Below, piece by piece: positions 1,837 through 64,000 of a stretch of DNA of 64,000 bases (position 1 is its first letter; every line of letters begins with the position of its first letter). Source of the stretch: a virus (lineage: Duplodnaviria; Heunggongvirae; Uroviricota; Caudoviricetes); the IMG/VR virus record IMGVR_UViG_3300029505_000002. One strand, 5' to 3'. Below the pieces are notes generated by a model, which was not told the origin of the DNA, made no database searches, and was given only the letters and a program-made list of their open reading frames with translations. Made by a program: the position numbers and the translations under genes.

Positions 1837-2020
1837 TTTTTTACCTCAATTTTTAAAATTATTGACAATTATACTAAAAAAATAACTTTTTGTCATTTCT
1901 ATTATTTGAAAATAGATTAACAATTTATAACCTTATTTTTTATAATTGTTTTTAAATATGAATTATTAATCTTTATTTTAATAATTATTTTCAATAATTT
2001 TATCAATATAAACTGATATA

Positions 2021-2136
2021 AAAGGTCGATAAATACATAAATATCGACTTTTATTTTATTGATATTATTAGATTTTTAAATTATCATTAAAATTCATCAA
2101 TATTTATCGACTTTTTTCTTTTAGTTTATCGACCAA
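2021..2136. repeat. four copies of TATCGAC (one inverted, three direct) in the divergent intergenic region upstream of the tyrosine recombinase; candidate recombinase-binding or regulatory repeats
   Basis: ggTCGATAaa ~2023, aTATCGACtt ~2042, tTATCGACtt ~2105, tTATCGACca ~2128, all read directly from the sequence. Confidence 0.45.
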
Positions 2137-2163
2137 TATGTTATAATAAATTGAGGTGATTAT

Positions 2164-2706
2164 ATGGCTCATAAAGTAACTAAACCATTAACTGAATATG
2201 AAATTACAAAAATTTTAAATAATGTTACTCAAGATGTAAAAAACGCTTTGCTTATCCAACTTAATACTGGACTAAGAATATCAGATATAGTAAGACTGAA
2301 ATATTCAGATATTCAGTTTGGAAAATTAGAAGTTATAGAAAAAAAGACTGGGAAACCCCAGATCACAAAAATCAATATGGATTTAGTTCAATATATTTTT
2401 GAGCATAGAACCATAATTGGCTCTGACTATATTTTTTGGAATGGTAAAACTAAAATAGATTCCATCATTCGTAAAATTGAAAAGCAAATCATTAAAGCTT
2501 GTGATTACGAGAATATACATTCTGAATTTATTTCTACACATAGTTTTAGAAAAACATTCGCTACCAATGCTTATAAAGAAACTAATGATATTCTAGTAGT
2601 ACAATATCTTCTTAACCATAGTAGTGTATCTGTTACTCAAAGATATATACAAATTAATAAAGATAAAGCAGATAGTTTTAGAAGTAAAAGTAGAATAGGG
2701 TTTTAA
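2164..2706 (+). CDS. small tyrosine site-specific recombinase (phage integrase/Xer family catalytic domain)
   Basis: C-terminal catalytic signature GLRISD (Arg), HSFRKTFAT (His-x-x-Arg), LNHSS (His), TQRY (Tyr nucleophile); only 180 aa, so the N-terminal DNA-binding domain is minimal. Confidence 0.75.
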   Translation: MAHKVTKPLTEYEITKILNNVTQDVKNALLIQLNTGLRISDIVRLKYSDIQFGKLEVIEKKTGKPQITKINMDLVQYIFEHRTIIGSDYIFWNGKTKIDSIIRKIEKQIIKACDYENIHSEFISTHSFRKTFATNAYKETNDILVVQYLLNHSSVSVTQRYIQINKDKADSFRSKSRIGF

Positions 2707-4659: not shown

Positions 4660-4673
4660 TTCCGCATGCGGAA
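4660..4673. repeat. copy 1 of conserved palindrome TTCCGCATGCGGAA (plus orientation of the extended motif)
   Basis: perfect 14-bp GC-rich palindrome in an AT-rich intergenic region, flanked by A/T runs. Confidence 0.7.
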
Positions 4674-11328: not shown

Positions 11329-11698
11329 TTCCTTTTTCTAATATTTCTAATATTCCAGCTTGTTCAAAGATGTCTAAAAGTTCTGATAAGCTTGGAAAAT
11401 CTTGATCACTAAATCTTATAAGTTTAATTTTTCCTAAGGTGTTGAATAGTTCTCTTTCAACATCATTTTTTTTATATTTTAAAAGTTGTTCAGTAGTTTT
11501 GAAAAAGAAGCCATCAGCTTTATCTATAGCGTGTTGGCTTCCATCACATTCAATTACAACTGGAGGAAAAGAGGTAAAATAAAAATCATACCTCTTATTT
11601 CCTTCTACCAATTCTTCTATAAGTTCAACATTATAAGATTTAGATATTTTCTTCAAAAGTTTATTCATATGTATTTGAGCTTTAGATAGCATTTTCAT
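11225..11698 (-). CDS. hypothetical protein with basic C-terminus
   Basis: 157-aa ORF; 104-nt overlap with the RuvC-like ORF suggests one of the two starts is mis-set. Confidence 0.4.
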   Translation of the reverse strand: MKMLSKAQIHMNKLLKKISKSYNVELIEELVEGNKRYDFYFTSFPPVVIECDGSQHAIDKADGFFFKTTEQLLKYKKNDVERELFNTLGKIKLIRFSDQDFPSLSELLDIFEQAGILEILEKGNDEDNANYQRIKYAEEQNRRRREQNKEFRKKLKR

Positions 11699-12839
11699 AT
11701 CCTTCTAATGTAGTTGGATCTATTTCTTCTAAAATACCACTCAACGAATCTATTAATACACTTATAGATTTAAAATCATCATAAGTCCATTTATAGCTTT
11801 TATTATTCTTTAACATAGATAAAGACATAATTACTGTACTTGCTTTTTCTATATAAGGAGTAACAGATTTTTCTGTTTTTACAGATTCTTTTATTTCTTC
11901 ATTTATTTTATCTTGTTCAGCTAAATCTTCTATTATATCATTAGCTTCACTTTGAATTTCAGGATATTCTCTATTACTATAATCAGCAATACCATTTCTA
12001 TCTATAACATCTTCTGAGTCTATTTTTTCAAATTGGTCAAAATATTCTTTTTTATCTTTAGCTTCAAGTGAATCCATATAAGTTTCATCAGCCTCTTGTT
12101 GTCTTTTTCTTTCTACTAAAACTTCATCAAAATCTTTTCCCTCTTTGAAATATTTAATAGCTTCTCTTAAATCATTTCTAGATAGTGAAGCGTATTTGTT
12201 ATAGAACTGTTTTAAAATAATTTTAGATTCTTCTGTTACACTTCCTGGGATTTCTTGTAAATGAATTACTAAAGAATAAAGCTCATCTATAGTACCAGTT
12301 TGTTTAATTGTTACTTCATCGTCTTCTAATATTTCTTTATGGAACAATACCCAGTTGAATAAACTTCTAGCTCTTCTAGGATCTATTTTACATTTCTTTA
12401 TAAAAGATACAAGACTTGTTGTGGGAGCTAATTTAATTGCTTTTACATACATATTATAAATCCAGTTAGCAATATCATATTCACTTAATCTTTCTCCATG
12501 ATTTACATTTTCATTAAAAGCATCTGTTTCCAAAGCTTCCATAGAATTATATTCTGTAATGTAAGCTTTAATGCTTTCTAATTCTAATGCTCTTGCCGCA
12601 GCAAATCTATGATATCCATCTACTATAATAATTTTTCCATCAAATAACCCTAAATGAATTTCTGGAAACATTCCTTCTGAAGCTACTAATTTATCAACAT
12701 TGTCCATATTTAATCCTCTTCTTGGATTAATATTAATTTCGTCACTAATAGCATCTAATTTTACATCACATATTTTCTTATCATTAATTGTTGAAATTTC
12801 CATTTCATTTACTTCCATTCCTTTTTCAATTGTTATCAT
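11682..12839 (-). CDS. ParB-like nuclease domain protein
   Basis: IIIVDGYHRFAAARAL resembles the ParB/Srx fold signature DG.HR..A. Confidence 0.55.
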   Translation of the reverse strand: MITIEKGMEVNEMEISTINDKKICDVKLDAISDEININPRRGLNMDNVDKLVASEGMFPEIHLGLFDGKIIIVDGYHRFAAARALELESIKAYITEYNSMEALETDAFNENVNHGERLSEYDIANWIYNMYVKAIKLAPTTSLVSFIKKCKIDPRRARSLFNWVLFHKEILEDDEVTIKQTGTIDELYSLVIHLQEIPGSVTEESKIILKQFYNKYASLSRNDLREAIKYFKEGKDFDEVLVERKRQQEADETYMDSLEAKDKKEYFDQFEKIDSEDVIDRNGIADYSNREYPEIQSEANDIIEDLAEQDKINEEIKESVKTEKSVTPYIEKASTVIMSLSMLKNNKSYKWTYDDFKSISVLIDSLSGILEEIDPTTLEGYENAI

Positions 12840-16625: not shown

Positions 16626-17267
16626 TTACTTTCTAAGAAGTTCGTTTATATACTTTGTTCCACGTCTTGTATAACATTTTTTACAAGTAATACAACTTAG
16701 ACCTGCACAGTTTATTTTTCCGCATGCGGAATTTTGATCTGAATAAACTGTAAATACTTTGTCAAAGTAATCTAACACTTCTTGGTTTTGTATCTTAACA
16801 TTAATTATCGGACTTGAAGCTATATAAATAATATTCTTTAATTTTGAATATTTCATTATCAAGTCATAACGTTTAGTCATTAAACAAAAAGTTGTTTGTG
16901 GATTATGTTTTGCTATATTTAAAAAATTTTGTACATGAATATCGTTTACAAATTCTCCAAAGCTATGAAATCTAACATAAGAGTTATTAAGAAAAGGTAT
17001 TTCTTCTTCTGTTAAGAGTTTTTTAGTTAATATATCTGTATTGTTTTTTAAACAACCTTCTAATTGCTTTCTTAATTTTTCATTCTTTTCTGCATAGCAA
17101 AGTTCACAAACACTTTTTTTTTCTCTGTCTCTTCTTGCTAAATTTCTTTTTCCCATTTCATTACAAAATTCATTACATAGTGTAGAAGTGTTAATACTTA
17201 CAATATGTTTTAATTTTCCGTCTGTATGAGTAGTAATATGTAATTGTCCTTTAATCAATCTAATCAA
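16626..17267 (-). CDS. hypothetical Cys-rich protein
   Basis: 213 aa with many Cys (CNEFCNEM, CELCY, CAGLSCITCKKC); contains palindrome copy 2 in its 3' end. Confidence 0.45.
   Translation of the reverse strand: MIRLIKGQLHITTHTDGKLKHIVSINTSTLCNEFCNEMGKRNLARRDREKKSVCELCYAEKNEKLRKQLEGCLKNNTDILTKKLLTEEEIPFLNNSYVRFHSFGEFVNDIHVQNFLNIAKHNPQTTFCLMTKRYDLIMKYSKLKNIIYIASSPIINVKIQNQEVLDYFDKVFTVYSDQNSACGKINCAGLSCITCKKCYTRRGTKYINELLRK
16718..16731. repeat. copy 2 of palindrome TTCCGCATGCGGAA (minus orientation of the extended motif), inside a CDS
   Basis: identical 14-mer; encodes N-S-A-C-G in the host ORF. Confidence 0.7.
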
Positions 17268-46502: not shown

Positions 46503-46516
46503 TTCCGCATGCGGAA
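46503..46516. repeat. copy 4 of palindrome TTCCGCATGCGGAA (plus orientation), immediately after the stop of the plus-strand gene
   Basis: identical 14-mer at 46503..46516. Confidence 0.7.
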
Positions 46517-51065: not shown

Positions 51066-51165
51066 TTGATACTCCCAACGAATGAATTCGTGGGATTCTC
51101 GGGTAGTAGAACCTTTTGTTAGCATTCTAAATTTACCGAGCTCAGAAGGGCTATCCTACCCTCTA
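51040..51165 (-). ncRNA. candidate TnpB omega-RNA / IS right-end structured region
   Basis: GC-richer segment overlapping and following the TnpB 3' end: cccaacgaatgaattcgtggg inverted repeat, gggtagtagaacc, ccgagctcagaagggctatcctaccc; IS605-family omega-RNAs derive from the tnpB 3' end plus the right end. Confidence 0.4.
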
Positions 51166-52323
51166 GTGTATTTTTCTTCCTTCTACTAAAATGTTAATAG
51201 AAGCATTTAAATCTCTATCATGTTCTTCTCCACATTGTGGACATACCCATTTTCTTATACTTGTATCTTTTACAAGTGCATTTTGATAACCACACGCAGA
51301 ACATATTTGACTACTAGCATAATATTGATTTATCTGTACAACATTTCTACCATACATTTTACCTTTATTATTTAGCATTATTACAAATGTTCCAAATGCT
51401 GAATCCATTATCGCTTTAGAAATACGTTTATCTTTAGACATTTCTTTTACATCTAAACTTTCTAAACAAATTAATTGGTTTTCTTGAATTAGTTTAGTTG
51501 ATAGTTTATGTAAAAAGTCTTTTCTTATATTAGCTATTCTTTCATGTAATAAAGCTATTTGTAGTTTTAGTTTTTTATATCTATTACTTTTTCTATCTTT
51601 CTTTTTAGATAGTTTTCTTTGTAATTTTTTCAATCTAGCTATATTTTTCCACATTGGTTTCGGAGCTTTAAATTCTTGTCCATCAGAACAAACAGCAAAT
51701 GTTTTTAATCCTAAGTCAATACCTATTTCTTTTGTAACTGGTTGTAATTTACTAGTGGTTTCATCAACACAAAAAGAAATAAAGTATTTTTCAGTAGGAG
51801 TTTTAGATATAGTAGCAGAAAGAATTTTTCCATTAAACTTTCTAGACCAAATTATATCTACTAATCCTACTTTTGGAATCAAAACTTGATTACCTTTAAT
51901 TTTACAAGTAGTTGTTTTGTAACTAGCTTTAGGATTATTTTTACTTTTAAACTTAGGATGAGCTTCGCTGTCTATAATTGTTGGTTTTTTATTTTTTCTT
52001 TTTAAACGTTCTACAACTTTAGAAGAATATCTAACTCCATTTTCCTTTACAAATTCAAACCAATTCTTATAAGTACTTTCTAATTGTTTCAAAGTTTGTT
52101 GCAACGCAGTAGAATCAACTTCGTTTAAGAAGGTATCTGATTTTTTAATTTGAGTTAATAAAGCTGACATTTTGTTATAATTTAACTTTTCTCCAAATTC
52201 TTTAAAACGAAATTCTTTTAAAGCTAAAAAGCCATTCCAAACATATCTACAGCAATTGAATGTTTTATCGATAATTTCTTGTTGTTCTTTTGTTGGGTAG
52301 ATTCTATATTTATATCCTTTCAA
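51163..52323 (-). CDS. tnpB: TnpB (IS200/IS605-family OrfB; RuvC-like RNA-guided nuclease)
   Basis: N-terminal MKGYKYRIYPTKEQ is a hallmark of OrfB/TnpB; C-terminal Zn finger CSACG...CPQCG; RuvC-III-like DRDLNASINIL. Confidence 0.8.
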   Translation of the reverse strand: MKGYKYRIYPTKEQQEIIDKTFNCCRYVWNGFLALKEFRFKEFGEKLNYNKMSALLTQIKKSDTFLNEVDSTALQQTLKQLESTYKNWFEFVKENGVRYSSKVVERLKRKNKKPTIIDSEAHPKFKSKNNPKASYKTTTCKIKGNQVLIPKVGLVDIIWSRKFNGKILSATISKTPTEKYFISFCVDETTSKLQPVTKEIGIDLGLKTFAVCSDGQEFKAPKPMWKNIARLKKLQRKLSKKKDRKSNRYKKLKLQIALLHERIANIRKDFLHKLSTKLIQENQLICLESLDVKEMSKDKRISKAIMDSAFGTFVIMLNNKGKMYGRNVVQINQYYASSQICSACGYQNALVKDTSIRKWVCPQCGEEHDRDLNASINILVEGRKIH

Positions 52324-52462
52324 TTTTTACACCTCCTTTTTGTCGATTATATTTTTTTACATTATAATAATGTATATACATATTATACATAGATTATACT
52401 TTTAAACAAATTTACATATGTTTTTATGTGTATATACATATTAATAATCGGAGGTAACAAAT

Positions 52463-52603
52463 ATGAAAAAAAGAATACAATTAGTGATGAATGAAAAAGT
52501 TTACAAGGAACTTCAAAAAAGAGCAATAGATGAAGATACAACTGTATCTGCTATATTAGAAAAACTTGCTGCAGATTATTTAGCCTTATATCCCCATGAC
52601 TAA
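52463..52603 (+). CDS. ribbon-helix-helix (CopG/Arc-like) DNA-binding protein, unlisted small ORF
   Basis: TCGGAGGTAACAAAT-ATG; MKKRIQLVMNEKVYKELQKRAIDEDTTVSAILEKLAADYLALYPHD has the beta-strand + two-helix RHH pattern; followed by a ccccatgac..gtcagggg tttt hairpin. Confidence 0.5.
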   Translation: MKKRIQLVMNEKVYKELQKRAIDEDTTVSAILEKLAADYLALYPHD

Positions 52604-52667
52604 AGTCAGGGGTTTTACGGCTATTCCCCATAAAATCACCTTCCTTTTTTTATTTAAAATAACATAA

Positions 52668-52700
52668 TAAAAAAAGCAGAAGTAATTAAACCTCTGCTTC
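52668..52700 (-). terminator. rho-independent terminator after the ParB-like gene
   Basis: aaaaaagcagaagtaattaaacctctgcttc. Confidence 0.45.
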
Positions 52701-52723
52701 TTATATAGCGTTATTTTATTCTC

Positions 52724-52743
52724 AGTTTCTCACGTGAGAAACT
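52724..52743. repeat. 20-bp perfect palindrome AGTTTCTCACGTGAGAAACT; parS-like candidate centromere
   Basis: CACGTG centre flanked by GTTTC/GAAAC, as in the TGTTNCACGTGAAACA parS consensus; lies ~20 bp downstream of the ParB-like gene. Confidence 0.45.
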
Positions 52744-52759
52744 CATTATTTATATTGAA

Positions 52760-53500
52760 TTAAACATCGTTTTCTAATTCAGCTTTCATTGATTTTTCTA
52801 ATTCTTTAATAATTGCTATTTTTTCTTTTTGTAATTTTATTTCTTCCTTAAGTATTTCAAGTTCTTCTCTTTTCTCTTTCAACAAAAGTTCAAGATTTTT
52901 TCTATCTTTAGTCGTTTGTTTTAATTTTTCTTTTTTATCATCTAAAGATAATTCTTTAAAATAATCTATATCTACTTCCTCTGGTTCTTCAGGTCCTTTT
53001 ATTTTATATTCTATAGCTTTTGCTATATTATCAGAGCTTATAATATCTATTACCTCTGCTTCCTCTATTTCTTTATTATTAAGAGCTTTAGTGATCATAG
53101 TTGTTTCTCTAGCTGTTAAATCCATAACAGTTTCCATATTAGAAATCAAATAAAGTTTATATTTATCTAAACATCTATATACAAAAGGTCTTGATAAGCC
53201 TAATTGTTCGATCCATTTAATAAAAGTTCCATCACCAACTTTTTCTCTTGATAATATTTTTTGAGCATCATATAAAGCCATAGATATATCCATTAAAGAA
53301 CTAGAAATTATTTCTTGTTTCTTTACTACTATCTGTTCTAATTCTATTAGTTTTATCTTTTCAGTCTCGCCTACTTGCAACATTTGGTAATCAACTTTTG
53401 ACGTATAGGTGTTAGTGTTTATTATTTGAGTAAGATTGTTTTGTATTTGATTTCTATTTAGGTTTTCTCTGTTTCCAAGCATAAATGTTTTTTTAGCCAA
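52760..53500 (-). CDS. putative partition protein (ParB-like / centromere-binding), third gene of the rep-parA operon
   Basis: position immediately downstream of parA; HTH-like FIKWIEQLGLSRPFVYRCLDKY; C-terminal coiled coil. Confidence 0.45.
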   Translation of the reverse strand: MAKKTFMLGNRENLNRNQIQNNLTQIINTNTYTSKVDYQMLQVGETEKIKLIELEQIVVKKQEIISSSLMDISMALYDAQKILSREKVGDGTFIKWIEQLGLSRPFVYRCLDKYKLYLISNMETVMDLTARETTMITKALNNKEIEEAEVIDIISSDNIAKAIEYKIKGPEEPEEVDIDYFKELSLDDKKEKLKQTTKDRKNLELLLKEKREELEILKEEIKLQKEKIAIIKELEKSMKAELENDV

Positions 53501-53502
53501 CT

Positions 53503-54321
53503 TTATTCACTCCCTCTTTTTTTTCTTTGTTTAGTTATTCCTATTCTTTTCATTACTTCTTTACAAAAAGATTCATAATCTCTTCCAACATTAGATTTAG
53601 GTTTATATTCAAATATTGATTGATTACACGCTATTGCTTCAATCATAGTAACACTTTGTCTAATTGTAGAAGCCATCAAAACATCTCCAAATATATTTTT
53701 TAATTCGTTAGATATCTCTTTGCTTATTACACTTCTTTCATCATAAAGTGTTAAGAATACTCCACCCATTTGTAAATTTTCATTAAATGTTAATTTTATT
53801 GTTTCTATACTTTCTGCTAATACTGTAGAACCACTTAATTCAAATATACCAGCTTTAACTGGAATAAATACATAATTAGAAGCAACAAGAGCATTTATCG
53901 TAAGTGTTCCTAGGTTAGGAGAACAGTCAATTACACAAACATCATAAAATTTACCAGCATCTAAAAGTACTTTCTTTAATAAGTTTTCTTTTCCTAGCTC
54001 AGAAGAAAAATTGATATTTGCTCTTTCCAAAGTAAGGTTAGAAGGTAACAAATCTATGTTTTCTTTTATATTTATAAGATATTTAGTTAACTGTTTATCA
54101 GAGTTTTTATTATTCATTAAAGTATATTCAGACATAATATCATATGCTGTACCTTTCAAAACATTTGGATTAGTTCCGAAAGCAGTAGATAAATTTCCTT
54201 GTGGATCCAAATCTATTCCTAATACTCTTAATCCATTATCACTTAAATAATGAATTAAATTAAACGCTGATGTTGTTTTAGCAACTCCTCCTTTGTTATT
54301 ACACAAACTAATGGTAATCAT
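53503..54321 (-). CDS. parA: ParA/Soj-family partition ATPase
   Basis: deviant Walker A NNKGGVAKTT; DLDPQGN. Confidence 0.8.
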   Translation of the reverse strand: MITISLCNNKGGVAKTTSAFNLIHYLSDNGLRVLGIDLDPQGNLSTAFGTNPNVLKGTAYDIMSEYTLMNNKNSDKQLTKYLINIKENIDLLPSNLTLERANINFSSELGKENLLKKVLLDAGKFYDVCVIDCSPNLGTLTINALVASNYVFIPVKAGIFELSGSTVLAESIETIKLTFNENLQMGGVFLTLYDERSVISKEISNELKNIFGDVLMASTIRQSVTMIEAIACNQSIFEYKPKSNVGRDYESFCKEVMKRIGITKQRKKRGSE

Positions 54322-54323
54322 TT

Positions 54324-55997
54324 TTATTCCTCCTCTTTTATAATAAACATTTTATTTAAAATCATATCTGCCATTTTTTCTGTATTACCTATCTCGATAT
54401 ATCTTTCTAATTCTTTTTTATATTCTTCCATACTAACAATATATTTATCTTGAGATTGTAATCTATTCTCTTCTTTACAAATGTCATATAAAGTTTTATT
54501 TTCACTTGAAACATTTGGTAATTCAGTTTTTACCATATCTGATACTTTTTTAATAGTTTTGTTTTTTAACTCTTTTTCAGTTCTTTTAATTTTGGTTTCC
54601 ATTTTAATACTTGCTTCTTCTTTTTTATTTTTAATAATTCCATTTATATATTGTACAAGAGTTTTTTCTATCTCTTGTTTTAAATTGCTATATAAATCAT
54701 TTAATATTTCACAAGTAAATGCAGAACCAAAATCTTTTAAGAGTTTTAAAATTTTATTATCAACATTTTTATTCCAAGCTTTACTAACATATATGTTTCT
54801 TTTAGCTTTTGTAATAGCTTTGGATAATTGTTCATCTATTTCTACATCTGATAGAGCATCTACCGTTATAGGTTCATTTTCATTATTTGTTTTTATTATT
54901 TGTTGCCTCATAGTAAATTTAATTTCTTTAAAATTATAATTTGGAATTAATTCATACTCTATGCACATTCCTGTTTTTACTTTTATATCTGCAATAGTAG
55001 GAATTAGAAATCTATTTACTAAGTGTTGCTTGTTCTTTAAATAACTTTCAGGCAATTGAAAAAAACCTTTGCATTGTTCTTTAGTTATAGTTACATATCC
55101 AAATTTAATATGATCTTTTAAAAAGGAATATAGTCTTATCGAATATTTTCCAGTAAGTTTATGTGTATTTTTTTCTTGTAGATGTACATATACTTCTGGC
55201 ATTAATAAATATTTTAATATTTCATCTGGTATCTGATAGCTCATCCAAGTCATTCTTTTCTTTTGAATAAAAGCAATACTAGCAATCATATTAGATACAG
55301 ATTCTATTTTAAGATTTTTTTTATCAATATAATTAAATGATAATTGTATTTTAGAAGCTTTTATAAGATTATCTTTTAATCTCTTAGAATTCATACCTAA
55401 TCTATTAGAAAAGGAAGTGAAATCTATAATTTTAGTTCTTCCATATCTGTTTAAAGTTTCATATACACATATATCCTTAATAGATTCTATTAGTTCTATT
55501 AATTCGTTATCTGTATATACTAAAAGTTCCATATTTTTCATAGATAGTTTTTTAACATCTATACCCTCTATATCAAGAAGATATTTTTCTTTTTTAGTTT
55601 TATCTATTAAAGAAGAATGTGCAGCTTCTATTTTTTTTCTTAAAATTTCTTCTTTAAGTTTTGGAACTTCTTCTGATTTTATTTTAGAAAAATCAATATT
55701 TATCTTTTTTATACCATCTTTAACATATGCAATCTTTAATAGATTATCTATTGTTTTGCTATCACTAAATAATCTACGTAGATAAGGTTTATATATGTCA
55801 AAGAATAATTTTTGTAATTCCATTTGAGTATCTGCTAATATAGATATAATACTTTTTTCAGTATCTATATTGTAATACTCTTGCTCTGTTGTAAATGTTA
55901 CTAGAGCGCTGTGTTGTTTCAATATTCTATCTGATTCAATAATTTCATTTTTTTTTAATCTCATCAAGAAAACAACTCCTGTAGTTTCATGTTTCAT
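54324..55997 (-). CDS. plasmid replication initiator (Rep_3 / RepB-like)
   Basis: C-terminal KYSIRLYSFLKDHIKFGYVTITKEQCKGFFQLPESYL...RFLIPTIADIKVKTGMCIEYE follows the Rep_3 pattern (Y.IRLYE.L...G...i....l...l.lp..Y......r.vl.pai.ein); iterons lie immediately upstream. Confidence 0.6.
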   Translation of the reverse strand: MKHETTGVVFLMRLKKNEIIESDRILKQHSALVTFTTEQEYYNIDTEKSIISILADTQMELQKLFFDIYKPYLRRLFSDSKTIDNLLKIAYVKDGIKKINIDFSKIKSEEVPKLKEEILRKKIEAAHSSLIDKTKKEKYLLDIEGIDVKKLSMKNMELLVYTDNELIELIESIKDICVYETLNRYGRTKIIDFTSFSNRLGMNSKRLKDNLIKASKIQLSFNYIDKKNLKIESVSNMIASIAFIQKKRMTWMSYQIPDEILKYLLMPEVYVHLQEKNTHKLTGKYSIRLYSFLKDHIKFGYVTITKEQCKGFFQLPESYLKNKQHLVNRFLIPTIADIKVKTGMCIEYELIPNYNFKEIKFTMRQQIIKTNNENEPITVDALSDVEIDEQLSKAITKAKRNIYVSKAWNKNVDNKILKLLKDFGSAFTCEILNDLYSNLKQEIEKTLVQYINGIIKNKKEEASIKMETKIKRTEKELKNKTIKKVSDMVKTELPNVSSENKTLYDICKEENRLQSQDKYIVSMEEYKKELERYIEIGNTEKMADMILNKMFIIKEEE

Positions 55998-56063
55998 GTT
56001 TCAAGAGTTTTGTTGTTTAGTGCTTTGTTACTGCTTGAAAACTAAGGCTTTTGAAGACATACT

Positions 56064-56121
56064 TGTAACAAACTGTAACACAAATATAACACTCTGTAAC
56101 CGAAGTATAACTTCCTGTAAC
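56064..56121. repeat. iterons: six T(G/A)TAAC repeats at alternating 10/11-bp spacing (candidate oriV)
   Basis: TGTAAC at 56064, 56074, 56095 and 56116; TATAAC at 56085 and 56106; nearby direct repeats gtttcat x3 (55985..56005), aact(c)ctaactttttgaaa x2 (56127..56163), acttgaaacat x2. Confidence 0.65.
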
Positions 56122-56278
56122 AAAGAACTAACTTTTTGAAATGAACTCCTAACTTTTTGAAACAAAAAAACTTGAAACATTTAGTAATTATATTTTTTTA
56201 TATTTTTCTTTATTTTAACATTTTTTCTATAATAATTACTAGGATTTTTTTAAACTTGAAACATTCTGTAAAAGAAAA

Positions 56279-56302
56279 AAGGTAGAGAAATTAATCTCTA
56301 CC
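56279..56302 (-). terminator. rho-independent terminator after the SPFH gene
   Basis: aaaaaaggtagagaaattaatctctacc (AATTAA-loop family). Confidence 0.55.
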
Positions 56303-56310
56303 TTCAATTA

Positions 56311-61529: not shown

Positions 61530-61543
61530 TTCCGCATGCGGAA
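61530..61543. repeat. copy 5 of palindrome TTCCGCATGCGGAA (minus orientation)
   Basis: identical 14-mer at 61530..61543. Confidence 0.7.
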
Positions 61544-62615: not shown

Positions 62616-64000
62616 ATGAAATCTAAAACATCTACATATACTATTGAATTTGAACTTATAACAACATTTCAAGATAGATACATTATCAATAAAAAAATGA
62701 AAGTTGCTAAATCTATTTATAACGCTTGTCTTAACGAATGCTTAAAAAGATTAAAAGCTGTAAAAGCAGATAAAGAATATCATACTCTTGTTAAAACGAA
62801 AAGCTCTAAACAAAGAAATAATCGTTTAAAAGAAATAGAACTTTGTTATAGATATTCTGAATATGATTTACATTCTTGGGTTAATCAAGTTAAACATCAT
62901 TTTGAAGGTCATCTTGGTATAAATGAGGTTCAAAAATTAGCTACCAGAGCATTTAAAACAGTTGAAAAATTTCATTACGGTAAAGCTAAAAAAGTATATT
63001 TTAAATCTTTTAAAGATGATATGCCTGTTGAAAATAAAAGTAACAAAACAGGTCTTAGAATTAAAGATTTAAAAATAATATGGGGTAATTTATCAATACC
63101 TTTTAAAGTTAAAAAGAATGATAAATATGCTCAATTAGCTCTACTTGACAAAACTAAATATGTACGTGTTTTAAAACGTGAAATAAGAGGAAAAGAAAGA
63201 TTCTTTGTCCAATTAATTCAAGAAGGTTTACCACCTAAAAAACATCAAATATCTACTGTTGAAAATCGTGTTGGTATTGATATAGGAACATCTACTGTTG
63301 CTGTTGTATCTGATAACGAAGTTTTTATGAATGAATTAGCAACTATCAAAACTCCTTATAAAAAATTAAGAAAGTTAGATAGAGCTATGGATAGATCAAG
63401 ACGTTCTACTAATCCTCAGAATTATAATGATAATGGTACTGTTAAAAAAGGATATAAAAAATGGAACTATTCTAACAGATACTTAAAGTTAAAATATAAA
63501 AGAAAAGAGTTGTTTAGAAAAATTGCTTCTATAAGGAAACAAAATCATGAACAAACTGCAAACTTTATTCTTTCTTTAGGATTAGATGTTCGTGTTGAAA
63601 CTATGAGATTCCAATCTTTACAAAAACGAGCTAAGAAAACAACTCGTAATAAAAAGAATGGAAAAATCAACAAGAAAAAACGTTTTGGTAAATCCATTGC
63701 TAATTATGCTCCAGCTATGTTACTTGAAATAATCAACAGAAAACTAAAGTATCAAAGTCTTGAGTTAAAAAAGATAGATACTTATGCTGTCTGTGCAAGT
63801 CAATTAAATCATACAACTGGAGAATGTACTAAAAAGTTCTTAGCAAACAGATGGAACAACATAGATGATAAACCTATTCAACGTGATTTATATTCAGCAT
63901 TTTTAATACAAAATACTACTAAAACATTAGATGTAGTAGATATTGATTTATGTAATTTAAAATTTGATAATTTTGTAAAACTACATGATATAGAAATACA
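62616..64000 (+). CDS. TnpB-like RuvC-domain protein (IS605 OrfB family), truncated by the window end
   Basis: AAGGAGGTGAGTAATCCT-ATG; RuvC-I-like VGIDIGTSTVAVV; basic Arg/Lys-rich middle; open to the window edge so absent from the ORF track. Confidence 0.55.
   Translation, partial: MKSKTSTYTIEFELITTFQDRYIINKKMKVAKSIYNACLNECLKRLKAVKADKEYHTLVKTKSSKQRNNRLKEIELCYRYSEYDLHSWVNQVKHHFEGHLGINEVQKLATRAFKTVEKFHYGKAKKVYFKSFKDDMPVENKSNKTGLRIKDLKIIWGNLSIPFKVKKNDKYAQLALLDKTKYVRVLKREIRGKERFFVQLIQEGLPPKKHQISTVENRVGIDIGTSTVAVVSDNEVFMNELATIKTPYKKLRKLDRAMDRSRRSTNPQNYNDNGTVKKGYKKWNYSNRYLKLKYKRKELFRKIASIRKQNHEQTANFILSLGLDVRVETMRFQSLQKRAKKTTRNKKNGKINKKKRFGKSIANYAPAMLLEIINRKLKYQSLELKKIDTYAVCASQLNHTTGECTKKFLANRWNNIDDKPIQRDLYSAFLIQNTTKTLDVVDIDLCNLKFDNFVKLHDIEI

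Follow-up and report, generated by a model that had tools for sequence, protein, structure and literature searches.

Phage-plasmids are recognised by plasmid replication and/or partition genes carried in a phage genome, and those of the layout considered here, such as P1, are textbook examples: in P1, the oriR/incC iterons are followed by repA and then by parA-parB-parS. The canonical parS site is a 16-bp palindrome (TGTTNCACGTGAAACA). In type Ib partition systems (TP228 ParF/ParG, pSM19035 delta/omega), a small ParA is combined with a DNA-binding adaptor that is not a ParB and has a flexible N-terminal tail. Fusobacterium is medically important (colorectal cancer, oral disease), but genetic tools and characterised phages are scarce for it, and no Fusobacterium phage-plasmid or jumbo phage of the kind described below was found in the literature. 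The same concept of an extrachromosomal phage genome is represented, in another host phylum, by pBtic235 of Bacillus thuringiensis, reported to be a circular jumbo prophage-plasmid with a phage genome of >200 kb (PMC9700832). The subject of this study is a 64-kb stretch of DNA (hereafter, the window) of the Caudoviricetes record IMGVR_UViG_3300029505_000002, which carries on its minus strand, at 52671-56305, a cassette of an iteron array, a rep gene, parA, a third gene (gene 3) and a 20-bp palindrome. This block is very probably a bona fide plasmid maintenance cassette, in which an origin with iterons and an initiator of the RepE/pi type are joined by a small ParA, its adaptor and a cis site. 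It is likely to sit in a large phage genome, as judged from the genes present, from synteny to a relative that has a terminase and from the IMG/VR membership of relatives. Homology and synteny further suggest, with moderate confidence, that it would keep the phage as a low-copy extrachromosomal plasmid prophage, i.e. a phage-plasmid.

Architecture of the cassette

Read on the minus strand from 56305 to 52671, the cassette comprised an upstream terminator, ~310 nt of non-coding DNA, rep, parA, gene 3, the palindrome and a downstream terminator, with one terminator bounding it on each side and gaps of 2 nt between neighbouring open reading frames (ORFs) (Table 1). All elements listed in a preliminary description of the sequence, including the terminator after the partition block, were present in the claimed minus-strand order. 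The interval given there (52324-56121) was too long at its low end and, at its high end, fell short of two iterons and of the distal origin region, which extends to ~56277; the part from 52324 to ~52637 is the end of an inserted element of the insertion sequence (IS) family IS605 with a ribbon-helix-helix (RHH) gene and lies outside the cassette.

The layout is like that of P1 in that iterons lie 5' of Rep and are followed by a two-gene partition operon with a cis site downstream, inside a phage genome. It differs from P1 in lacking an incA-like downstream iteron block, in having a ParA that appears type Ib-like and has no N-terminal helix-turn-helix (HTH), where that of P1 is type Ia, in a partner protein without the ParB N-terminal domain and in a candidate site made up of a single 20-bp palindrome. 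In addition, the genome is about twice as large as that of P1, encodes its own DnaE-type replisome and shows no sequence similarity to any INPHARED record. Cassettes of Fusobacteriota plasmids have the same rep-parA-gene3 order and 5-6 iterons of 21 bp with an AAGTT core; those plasmids carry sugar-metabolism, restriction-modification and mobilisation genes, whereas the replicon of the window carries a phage replication module.

Table 1. Positions of the cassette features in the window, in minus-strand order.
Feature	Position	Strand	Remarks
Upstream intrinsic terminator, of the SPFH/Band_7 gene	56278..56305	-	11-bp stem followed by a T-run; marks the cassette edge
Distal origin region	56163..56277	-	two AATGTTTCAAGT copies around an A+T-rich stretch; promoter-like hexamers
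Iteron array, 5 x 21 bp	56058..56162	-	Tandem Repeats Finder (TRF) and sequence reading
Candidate autoregulatory operator (inverted ATGTTTCAAG and GTTTCAT x3)	55984..56005	+	putative function
rep, 546 aa	54324..55964	-	iteron-type initiator
parA, 272 aa	53503..54321	-	begins 2 nt past the rep stop codon
gene 3, 246 aa, candidate centromere-binding adaptor	52760..53500	-	position beside ParA
Perfect 20-bp palindrome AGTTTCTCACGTGAGAAACT, candidate centromere or operator	52724..52743	.	17 nt past the gene 3 stop codon
Downstream intrinsic terminator, end of rep-parA-gene3	52671..52702	-	13 pairs followed by a T-run

Related cassettes on plasmids and in sister genomes

A counterpart with 83% DNA identity over 3,573 bp was identified on a 95-kb relaxase-bearing long-read gut contig (ERZ27273361 contig_5541; hereafter L076), the aligned region corresponding to window positions 52710-56279, i.e. 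the stretch between both terminators. At the protein level, L076 was 80% (Rep), 92% (ParA) and 85% (gene 3) identical to the window. Its cassette lies among genes for a MobA/MobL relaxase, another ParA and a type I restriction-modification system, which identify the L076 replicon as a plasmid. The same order was found on pZRK30-3 (CP102408.1), a Fusobacteriota plasmid in which a 39%-identical Rep homologue is followed by ParA and then by a 232-aa protein, and on a 43-kb contig of Propionigenium maris, which carries a Fusobacteriota cassette with the rep-parA-gene3 arrangement. Homologues of the C-terminal region of Rep are placed at the record start of Ilyobacter megaplasmids. With the RepE/pi fold of its initiator (see below), its gene order on Fusobacteriota plasmids and an 83%-identical copy beside a relaxase gene, the block was borne out as plasmid-type.

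A cassette was also present in a 199-kb sister contig (ERZ27282696 k141_62270, 198,969 nt; hereafter L075), whose Rep, ParA and gene 3 products were 60%, 82% and 56% identical, respectively, to those of the window. It occupies the same locus, between Band_7/dUTPase genes on one side and AAA/VWA/SNF2 genes on the other. The cassette of the window is thus closer to that of the plasmid L076 than to that of the sister phage L075.

Rep initiator

The ORF proposed to encode a Rep_3-like initiator proved to be real, and its product to have the RepE/pi fold. The likely start of rep is the ATG at 55964, which is preceded by AGGAG and yields a protein of 546 aa. This version matched called genes in human-gut metagenomes exactly; a 557-aa version gave no match in the same look-up, and 557-aa calls do exist among members of the same cluster. 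When Rep alone was compared with Pfam, a match to Rep3_C (PF21205; E 0.01, 16.5 bits) was obtained that lay below the cut-off of 21.1, and Rep3_N (PF01051) was not matched. Among its relatives, Rep3_C was matched in 17 of 22 and Rep3_N in 3 of 22, the latter matches falling among the more distant ones, and a profile of the Rep family matched the second winged-helix (WH2) domain of F-plasmid RepE (7.9e-9). Because the relatives match Rep3_C and Rep3_N and the family profile matches RepE, Rep is a genuine WH1-WH2 iteron initiator of the RepE/pi family with the tandem winged-helix fold of these proteins, and is predicted to bind the iterons. Its WH1-WH2 core spans residues ~150-355.

Compared with F RepE and R6K pi (Pfam Rep_3), Rep is twice as long, with an extra helical N-terminal region of ~150 aa and an additional conserved C-terminal module that is common to RPA-type Reps of Fusobacteriaceae. 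This module (residues ~378-473, ~54546-54833; KAKRNIYVSKAWNK...LVQYINGIIKN) is the most conserved part of the protein and is shared at 40-60% identity by otherwise different Fusobacteriaceae Reps. Its carriers include Rep_3-type, RPA-type (PF10134) and 'DnaA'-annotated proteins, with some copies being chromosomal; its probable role is to recruit a host factor, as a domain passed from one initiator family to another. In a scan of 185,579 species genomes with Rep, all matching loci (60/60) were located in Fusobacteriaceae; a tblastn search of INPHARED phages with Rep and a single-sequence Rep query in IMG/VR returned nothing. The Rep cluster contained 36 metagenome sequences and the gene 3 cluster 15, and all three ORFs were intact in dozens of variants.

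Iterons and accessory motifs of the origin

By sequence reading, five contiguous iteron units of 21 bp were delimited at 56142-56162 (TTTCAAAAAGTTAGGAGTTCA), 56121-56141 (TTTCAAAAAGTTAGTTCTTTG), 56100-56120 (TTACAGGAAGTTATACTTCGG), 56079-56099 (TTACAGAGTGTTATATTTGTG) and 56058-56078 (TTACAGTTTGTTACAAGTATG), with the consensus TTwCAnnnnGTTA, and TRF reported a 21-bp period at 56066-56122 plus a 10-bp sub-period. The six T(G/A)TAAC hexamers phased at 10/11 bp, which had been taken as the iteron array, are present but correspond to pairs of half-sites of the last three 21-bp units; the further direct repeats noted nearby (two copies of TTTCAAAAAGTTAG) exist as well and make up its units 1 and 2. 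A position weight matrix derived from the five units gave one other match in 64 kb (shuffled mean 0.4, never clustered); since the matrix was built from the array itself, this test is partly circular, and the exact phasing is the stronger argument. The exact iteron string had no match in IMG/VR. Arrays of 5-6 x 21 bp were located at the same spot 5' of rep in L075, L076, pZRK30-3 (L001) and a further cassette (L014). They have the AAGTT core in common and differ at flanking positions, the iteron sequence varying between cassettes in parallel with the divergence of Rep. The locus thus has the tandem iterons of ~17-22 bp, adjoining the gene, that go with Rep_3 initiators.

The AATGTTTCAAGT motif was found in the distal origin region at 56254-56265 and 56170-56181, and elsewhere in the cassette at 54504-54515 (inside rep) and, with one mismatch, at 53373-53384 (inside gene 3). 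An inverted ATGTTTCAAG copy is located at 55996-56005, just 5' of the rep ribosome-binding site, and is 100% complementary to 56255-56264. In the window as a whole, seven matches to AATGTTTCAAGT were counted (1.35 expected); the positions of the copies within the cassette are kept in the plasmid cassette L076, not in L075. The distal origin region is a putative DNA-unwinding element and/or operator, and the inverted ATGTTTCAAG site together with the three GTTTCAT copies is a candidate autoregulatory operator.

ParA, gene 3 and the palindromic site

The assignment of the second gene to ParA was upheld by matches to Pfam AAA_31 (5.5e-45; 153.9 bits, cut-off 27) and CbiA (5.7e-20; 72 bits) and to the ParA-like phrog_164 (1.4e-58). 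The protein has the ParA-type P-loop of ParA/Soj ATPases, with the deviant Walker A motif NKGGVAKTT at residues 9-17. It fell into no named equivalog (RepA, SopA, PrgP, ParA_partition), its NCBIfam scores being far below the cut-offs (e.g. 111 vs 348 for TIGR03453), and is a member of the ParA superfamily outside any named subfamily. Because it lacks an N-terminal DNA-binding extension, it appears from its sequence to resemble the small ParA proteins of type Ib systems.

Gene 3 is an intact, conserved ORF of a narrow family (31 proteins). It had been described as ParB-like; no ParB or other domain was matched in Pfam or NCBIfam, the only PHROG match was to a group of unknown function, and the alignment of the family lacks the GxxRxxA motif of the N-terminal (CTPase) domain of ParB. 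Gene 3 is accordingly not a member of the ParB family. In a structural model (predicted local distance difference test, pLDDT, 80), a disordered basic N-terminus (residues 1-29) is followed by a helical, HTH-like core (residues ~85-170) and a 60-residue C-terminal coiled coil; the core contains the conserved sequence GDGTFxKWFxQLGLSKxFVYRCLDKY with invariant G91, W96 and R109. A Foldseek search with this model gave nothing significant. Its position beside ParA, the synteny with plasmids and weak resemblance suggest that gene 3 probably encodes a helical, coiled-coil centromere-binding protein. The pair is like type Ib systems in combining a small ParA that has no N-terminal DNA-binding domain with a non-ParB adaptor bearing a disordered N-terminal tail; it differs from them in that gene 3 is larger, with a helical HTH-like region and a long coiled coil in place of a ribbon-helix-helix, and in that a lone palindrome after the operon, rather than a repeat array upstream of parA, is the candidate site.

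The 20-bp palindrome is unique in the window even when up to three mismatches are allowed (0 copies expected by chance). Although it was described as parS-like, it is not a canonical parS: the site, GTTTCtcAC|GTgaGAAAC, is like parS with two extra bp per arm, a resemblance that serves as a lead only. The palindromes that follow gene 3 in the window, L076 and L075 all have TCTCAyGTGAGA at their centre, without mismatch in the first two and with two mismatches in L075, and their outer arms differ between the cassettes, each of them being symmetric. A second perfect palindrome with the same core (ATGTCTCACGTGAGACAT) was noted in L075 at 1216-1233, ~8.8 kb upstream of rep. Since this copy is followed by a T-run, palindromes of this type may act also as terminator hairpins.

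A weak ParB_N match (phrog_1033, 8e-7; TIGR00180, 1.3e-3) was obtained for a different protein of the window, encoded at 11682-12839 on the minus strand (385 aa), 40 kb away from ParA. It contains a GxxRxxA-type motif (GYHRFAA), has a 38%-identical counterpart in the related 177-kb phage described below and is possibly a CTPase or nuclease of ParB/Srx type that has no connection with the cassette.

Carrier replicon

The G+C content of the window is 25%, and nearly all ORFs are on the minus strand. Comparison with Pfam, PHROG and PDB confirmed RecA, RuvC, a class II-type ribonucleotide reductase (RNR) and UvrD-like and SNF2 helicases; a T4 Rnl2-type ligase, dUTPase, FolD, HU, a Rha/ANT antirepressor-type protein, HNH/VWA and AAA proteins and four tRNAs were also identified. 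A DnaG-type primase lies within an 827-aa protein. The DnaE-type polymerase is encoded by two ORFs (27975-29225 and 29149-31785, minus strand) with an overlap of 77 nt; in a related phage, it is a single ORF of 1261 aa (L008 9947-13732), and the division may be genuine, programmed or the product of a frameshift. Of the phage-type neighbours named in the preliminary description, DnaE-like polymerase, primase, RecA, RuvC and RNR were all recovered, but not the helicase half of the 'gp4-like' protein.

Contigs of the Rep and gene 3 clusters had lengths of 194,150, 196,174, 198,969, 199,923, 200,428, 204,889, 206,474 and 207,444 nt, and one cluster member came from a metagenome-assembled genome named Fusobacterium sp. 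The genome is therefore taken to be ~200 kb long and to come from the human gut, with Fusobacterium as its host. Searches with blastn and megablast of INPHARED phages, using the block and 18 kb of the window, gave no match, the polymerase and primase had only distant matches (~25-30%) among phages and plasmids, and no close relative of the window was found in INPHARED or PLSDB. Chromosomal housekeeping context was absent from the window, its flanks and the long contigs sampled.

Homologous genes were identified on a 177-kb IMG/VR contig, whose polymerase is 61% identical and which matches 17 proteins of the window at 33-70% aa identity; the replication module is syntenic between the two (38-70% aa identity). 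This contig encodes a 613-aa Rep3_C protein of its own on the opposite strand, and ahead of the gene an unrelated iteron of ~20 bp (ATCATTAGAAATATGTGCAA) is repeated at least 11 times. The ~40 kb upstream of this Rep contain only small or unknown ORFs and transposase, NUDIX, DprA-like and anti-restriction genes. Beyond a walk of ~50 kb in the 177-kb genome, an opposite-strand module was reached that includes a large terminase of 545 aa (Terminase_6N, PF03237; T4 gp17, 4e-6), followed by ORFs of 835, 1102, 454 and 452 aa; sequence searches of the PDB with the portal and capsid candidates returned nothing. As the terminase and the Rep with its iterons are on one contig, this relative is a tailed phage with a plasmid-type initiator and iterons. 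The terminase was reached via orthologues of a 1389-aa ORF of this module, which had no match in Pfam, PHROG or phage databases. A conserved protein of ~1370 aa (L089 3298-7467, L090 10001-14110) is located ~4 kb upstream of the terminase in the related phages. For this protein, no match was found in Pfam, PHROG, PDB or phage databases, and only six homologues were present among 5.8 billion proteins.

Several further features of the window were recorded. A tyrosine recombinase gene at 1840-2706 (plus strand) encodes a 180-aa catalytic domain alone (XerA-like, 3.7e-25), and the 330-bp A+T-rich region in front of it contains an inverted repeat (TCGATAAATACATAAATATCGA) and two further copies of TTTATCGAC; gene and repeats are candidates for a system that resolves multimers, as would suit carriage as a plasmid. 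Five copies of a G+C-rich 14-bp palindrome (TTCCGCATGCGGAA) are present, at 4660-4673, 16718-16731, 32140-32153, 46503-46516 and 61530-61543 (one copy with one mismatch; 0 expected). The copies are ~12-15 kb apart, mostly intergenic and flanked by A/T runs; the motif also occurs in flanks of the lineage (L007, L009), and the sister contig L075 has it in the form TCGCATGCGA. Neither the related 177-kb phage nor the plasmid cassette contains it. The motif may be bound by a regulator or a ParB-type protein, or may be related to restriction.

The IS605-family element next to the cassette extends over ~51070-52637, with hairpin-rich ends, a TnpB gene at 51163-52323 (minus strand; OrfB_IS605 and Cas12f1-like TNB domains) and a small CopG-like RHH gene at 52463-52603 (plus strand). 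Its insertion point coincides exactly with the start codon of the gene that follows the cassette. A natural variant (L005) is without the element, and there the downstream gene abuts the terminator. Because the RHH gene and TnpB are both missing from this variant, they were rejected as members of the partition block. Searches for other insertion sites or a host with TnpB as the query returned the same context only. A second, different TnpB-like gene at 62617-64000 (plus strand) runs off the end of the window; it is probably multi-copy and breaks assemblies, since the short-read contigs of several samples all end inside it.

Proposed mechanism

Briefly, Rep monomers would bind the five 21-bp iterons, all of which would face one side of the DNA because the 21-bp period corresponds to two helical turns. 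Binding of Rep would open the adjacent A+T-rich DNA and recruit a helicase of the host or the phage. The genes rep, parA and gene 3 would be transcribed together, and Rep dimers and/or gene 3 may repress this operon via the inverted ATGTTTCAAG at the start of rep. A dimer of the gene 3 product, joined by the C-terminal coiled coil, is expected to bind the 20-bp palindrome through its helical core, while its basic N-terminal tail would stimulate the ATPase activity of ParA. Sister copies would then be separated by nucleoid-bound ParA-ATP.

Weighing of the possible lifestyles

A role of the cassette in plasmid-prophage maintenance is considered the best reading, because partition helps only a low-copy replicon that persists, one locus has been kept across diverged lineages and no full-length integrase was found in addition to the Xer-like domain. 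Extrachromosomal maintenance would also be in keeping, indirectly, with the lack of chromosomal flanks in all contigs and with the recurrence of contigs of 194-207 kb. Several observations weigh against the plasmid-prophage reading. In a check for virion and terminase genes suggested by the preliminary description, neither the window nor ~10 kb beyond each end yielded any virion or packaging family; the terminase-bearing contigs have no sequence overlap with the lineage of the window and lack its marker TTCCGCATGCGGAA; no ParA or gene 3 was found in the ~100 kb of the 177-kb phage that were examined; no repressor gene was identified; and the lone palindrome could be an RNA hairpin, a similar one in L075 preceding a T-run. 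The plasmid replication and partition genes that characterise phage-plasmids are thus in place, but virion genes were not found in the window and its ~10-kb flanks. As the terminase was found only in the related 177-kb genome, the phage-plasmid conclusion rests on homology and synteny, by which virion genes would be expected in this exact replicon too.

The main rival, which is judged unlikely, is an obligately lytic or pseudolysogenic jumbo phage in which Rep and the iterons are the phage's own origin (compare lambda O and its iterons), ParA and gene 3 serve to position replicating genomes or to sustain carriage for a time, and no true plasmid prophage exists. The 177-kb phage, with its Rep3_C protein and many iterons and no adjacent ParA, fits this explanation, since Rep and iterons may then just be the origin of the clade and not proof of lysogeny. 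So do the lack of a repressor and full integrase, the complete replisome and reports of persistent 'virulent' jumbo phages (bioRxiv 10.1101/2024.12.31.630880). However, the whole cassette, including ParA and gene 3, is 83% identical to that of a relaxase plasmid and built like the cassettes of Fusobacteriota plasmids, the replicon carries a Rha/ANT antirepressor-type gene, and partition would be of use only if the low-copy replicon persisted through division.

The remaining explanations are less likely. It is improbable that the replicon is a non-viral megaplasmid which took up phage-like genes for replication and nucleotide metabolism and of which the cassette is the ordinary replicon. Such a reading would suit the absence of virion genes from ~84 kb of the lineage and the place of Rep homologues at the head of Ilyobacter megaplasmids and of a 133-kb 'chromosome 2'. 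Against it, synteny links the replication module to a terminase-bearing genome, related contigs are in IMG/VR, four tRNAs and Rnl2, HNH and Rha/ANT genes are present, the gene density and single-strand gene order are typical of large phages, and no conjugation genes were seen. There is only a slim chance that the cassette is a passive passenger, i.e. a small plasmid or maintenance module captured lately and unused by the phage. Its discreteness between terminators, its 83% nucleotide identity to a plasmid cassette, nearer than the sister phage, and the IS elements inserted beside it would suit such a capture; yet its presence at the same locus in a sister lineage with a Rep only 60% identical indicates long retention, the ORFs are intact in dozens of variants and the iterons diverge in parallel with Rep. 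An integrated remnant in a Fusobacterium chromosome is scarcely credible, given that the cassette is complete, that chromosomal context is lacking in the window, its flanks and the long contigs sampled and that contigs break at TnpB copies and not at chromosomal DNA, even though some distant matches to the Rep C-terminus are chromosomal (L029, L040, L044, L057, L073).

Significance

The current understanding of phage-plasmids, whose layout is already known, is not overturned by this locus. Since the cassette is near-identical in a phage and a relaxase-bearing plasmid, it clearly illustrates that phages and plasmids exchange modules. Tentatively, the findings may be extended to a clade of Fusobacteriaceae phages of ~180-210 kb, in which a Rep_3 protein and iterons might be the resident origin, rep-par cassettes might be swapped with co-resident plasmids and the ParA partner might represent a new family of centromere-binding proteins. 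If this is true, an exchangeable plasmid module would set the incompatibility group, the copy control and perhaps the host range of a jumbo phage. Gene 3 may define such a new protein family, and the 3.6-kb cassette, with origin, Rep, ParA, adaptor and site, is a candidate for a stable low-copy Fusobacterium vector. A phage of ~200 kb living as a plasmid would, if true, represent a type of mobile element new to Fusobacterium.

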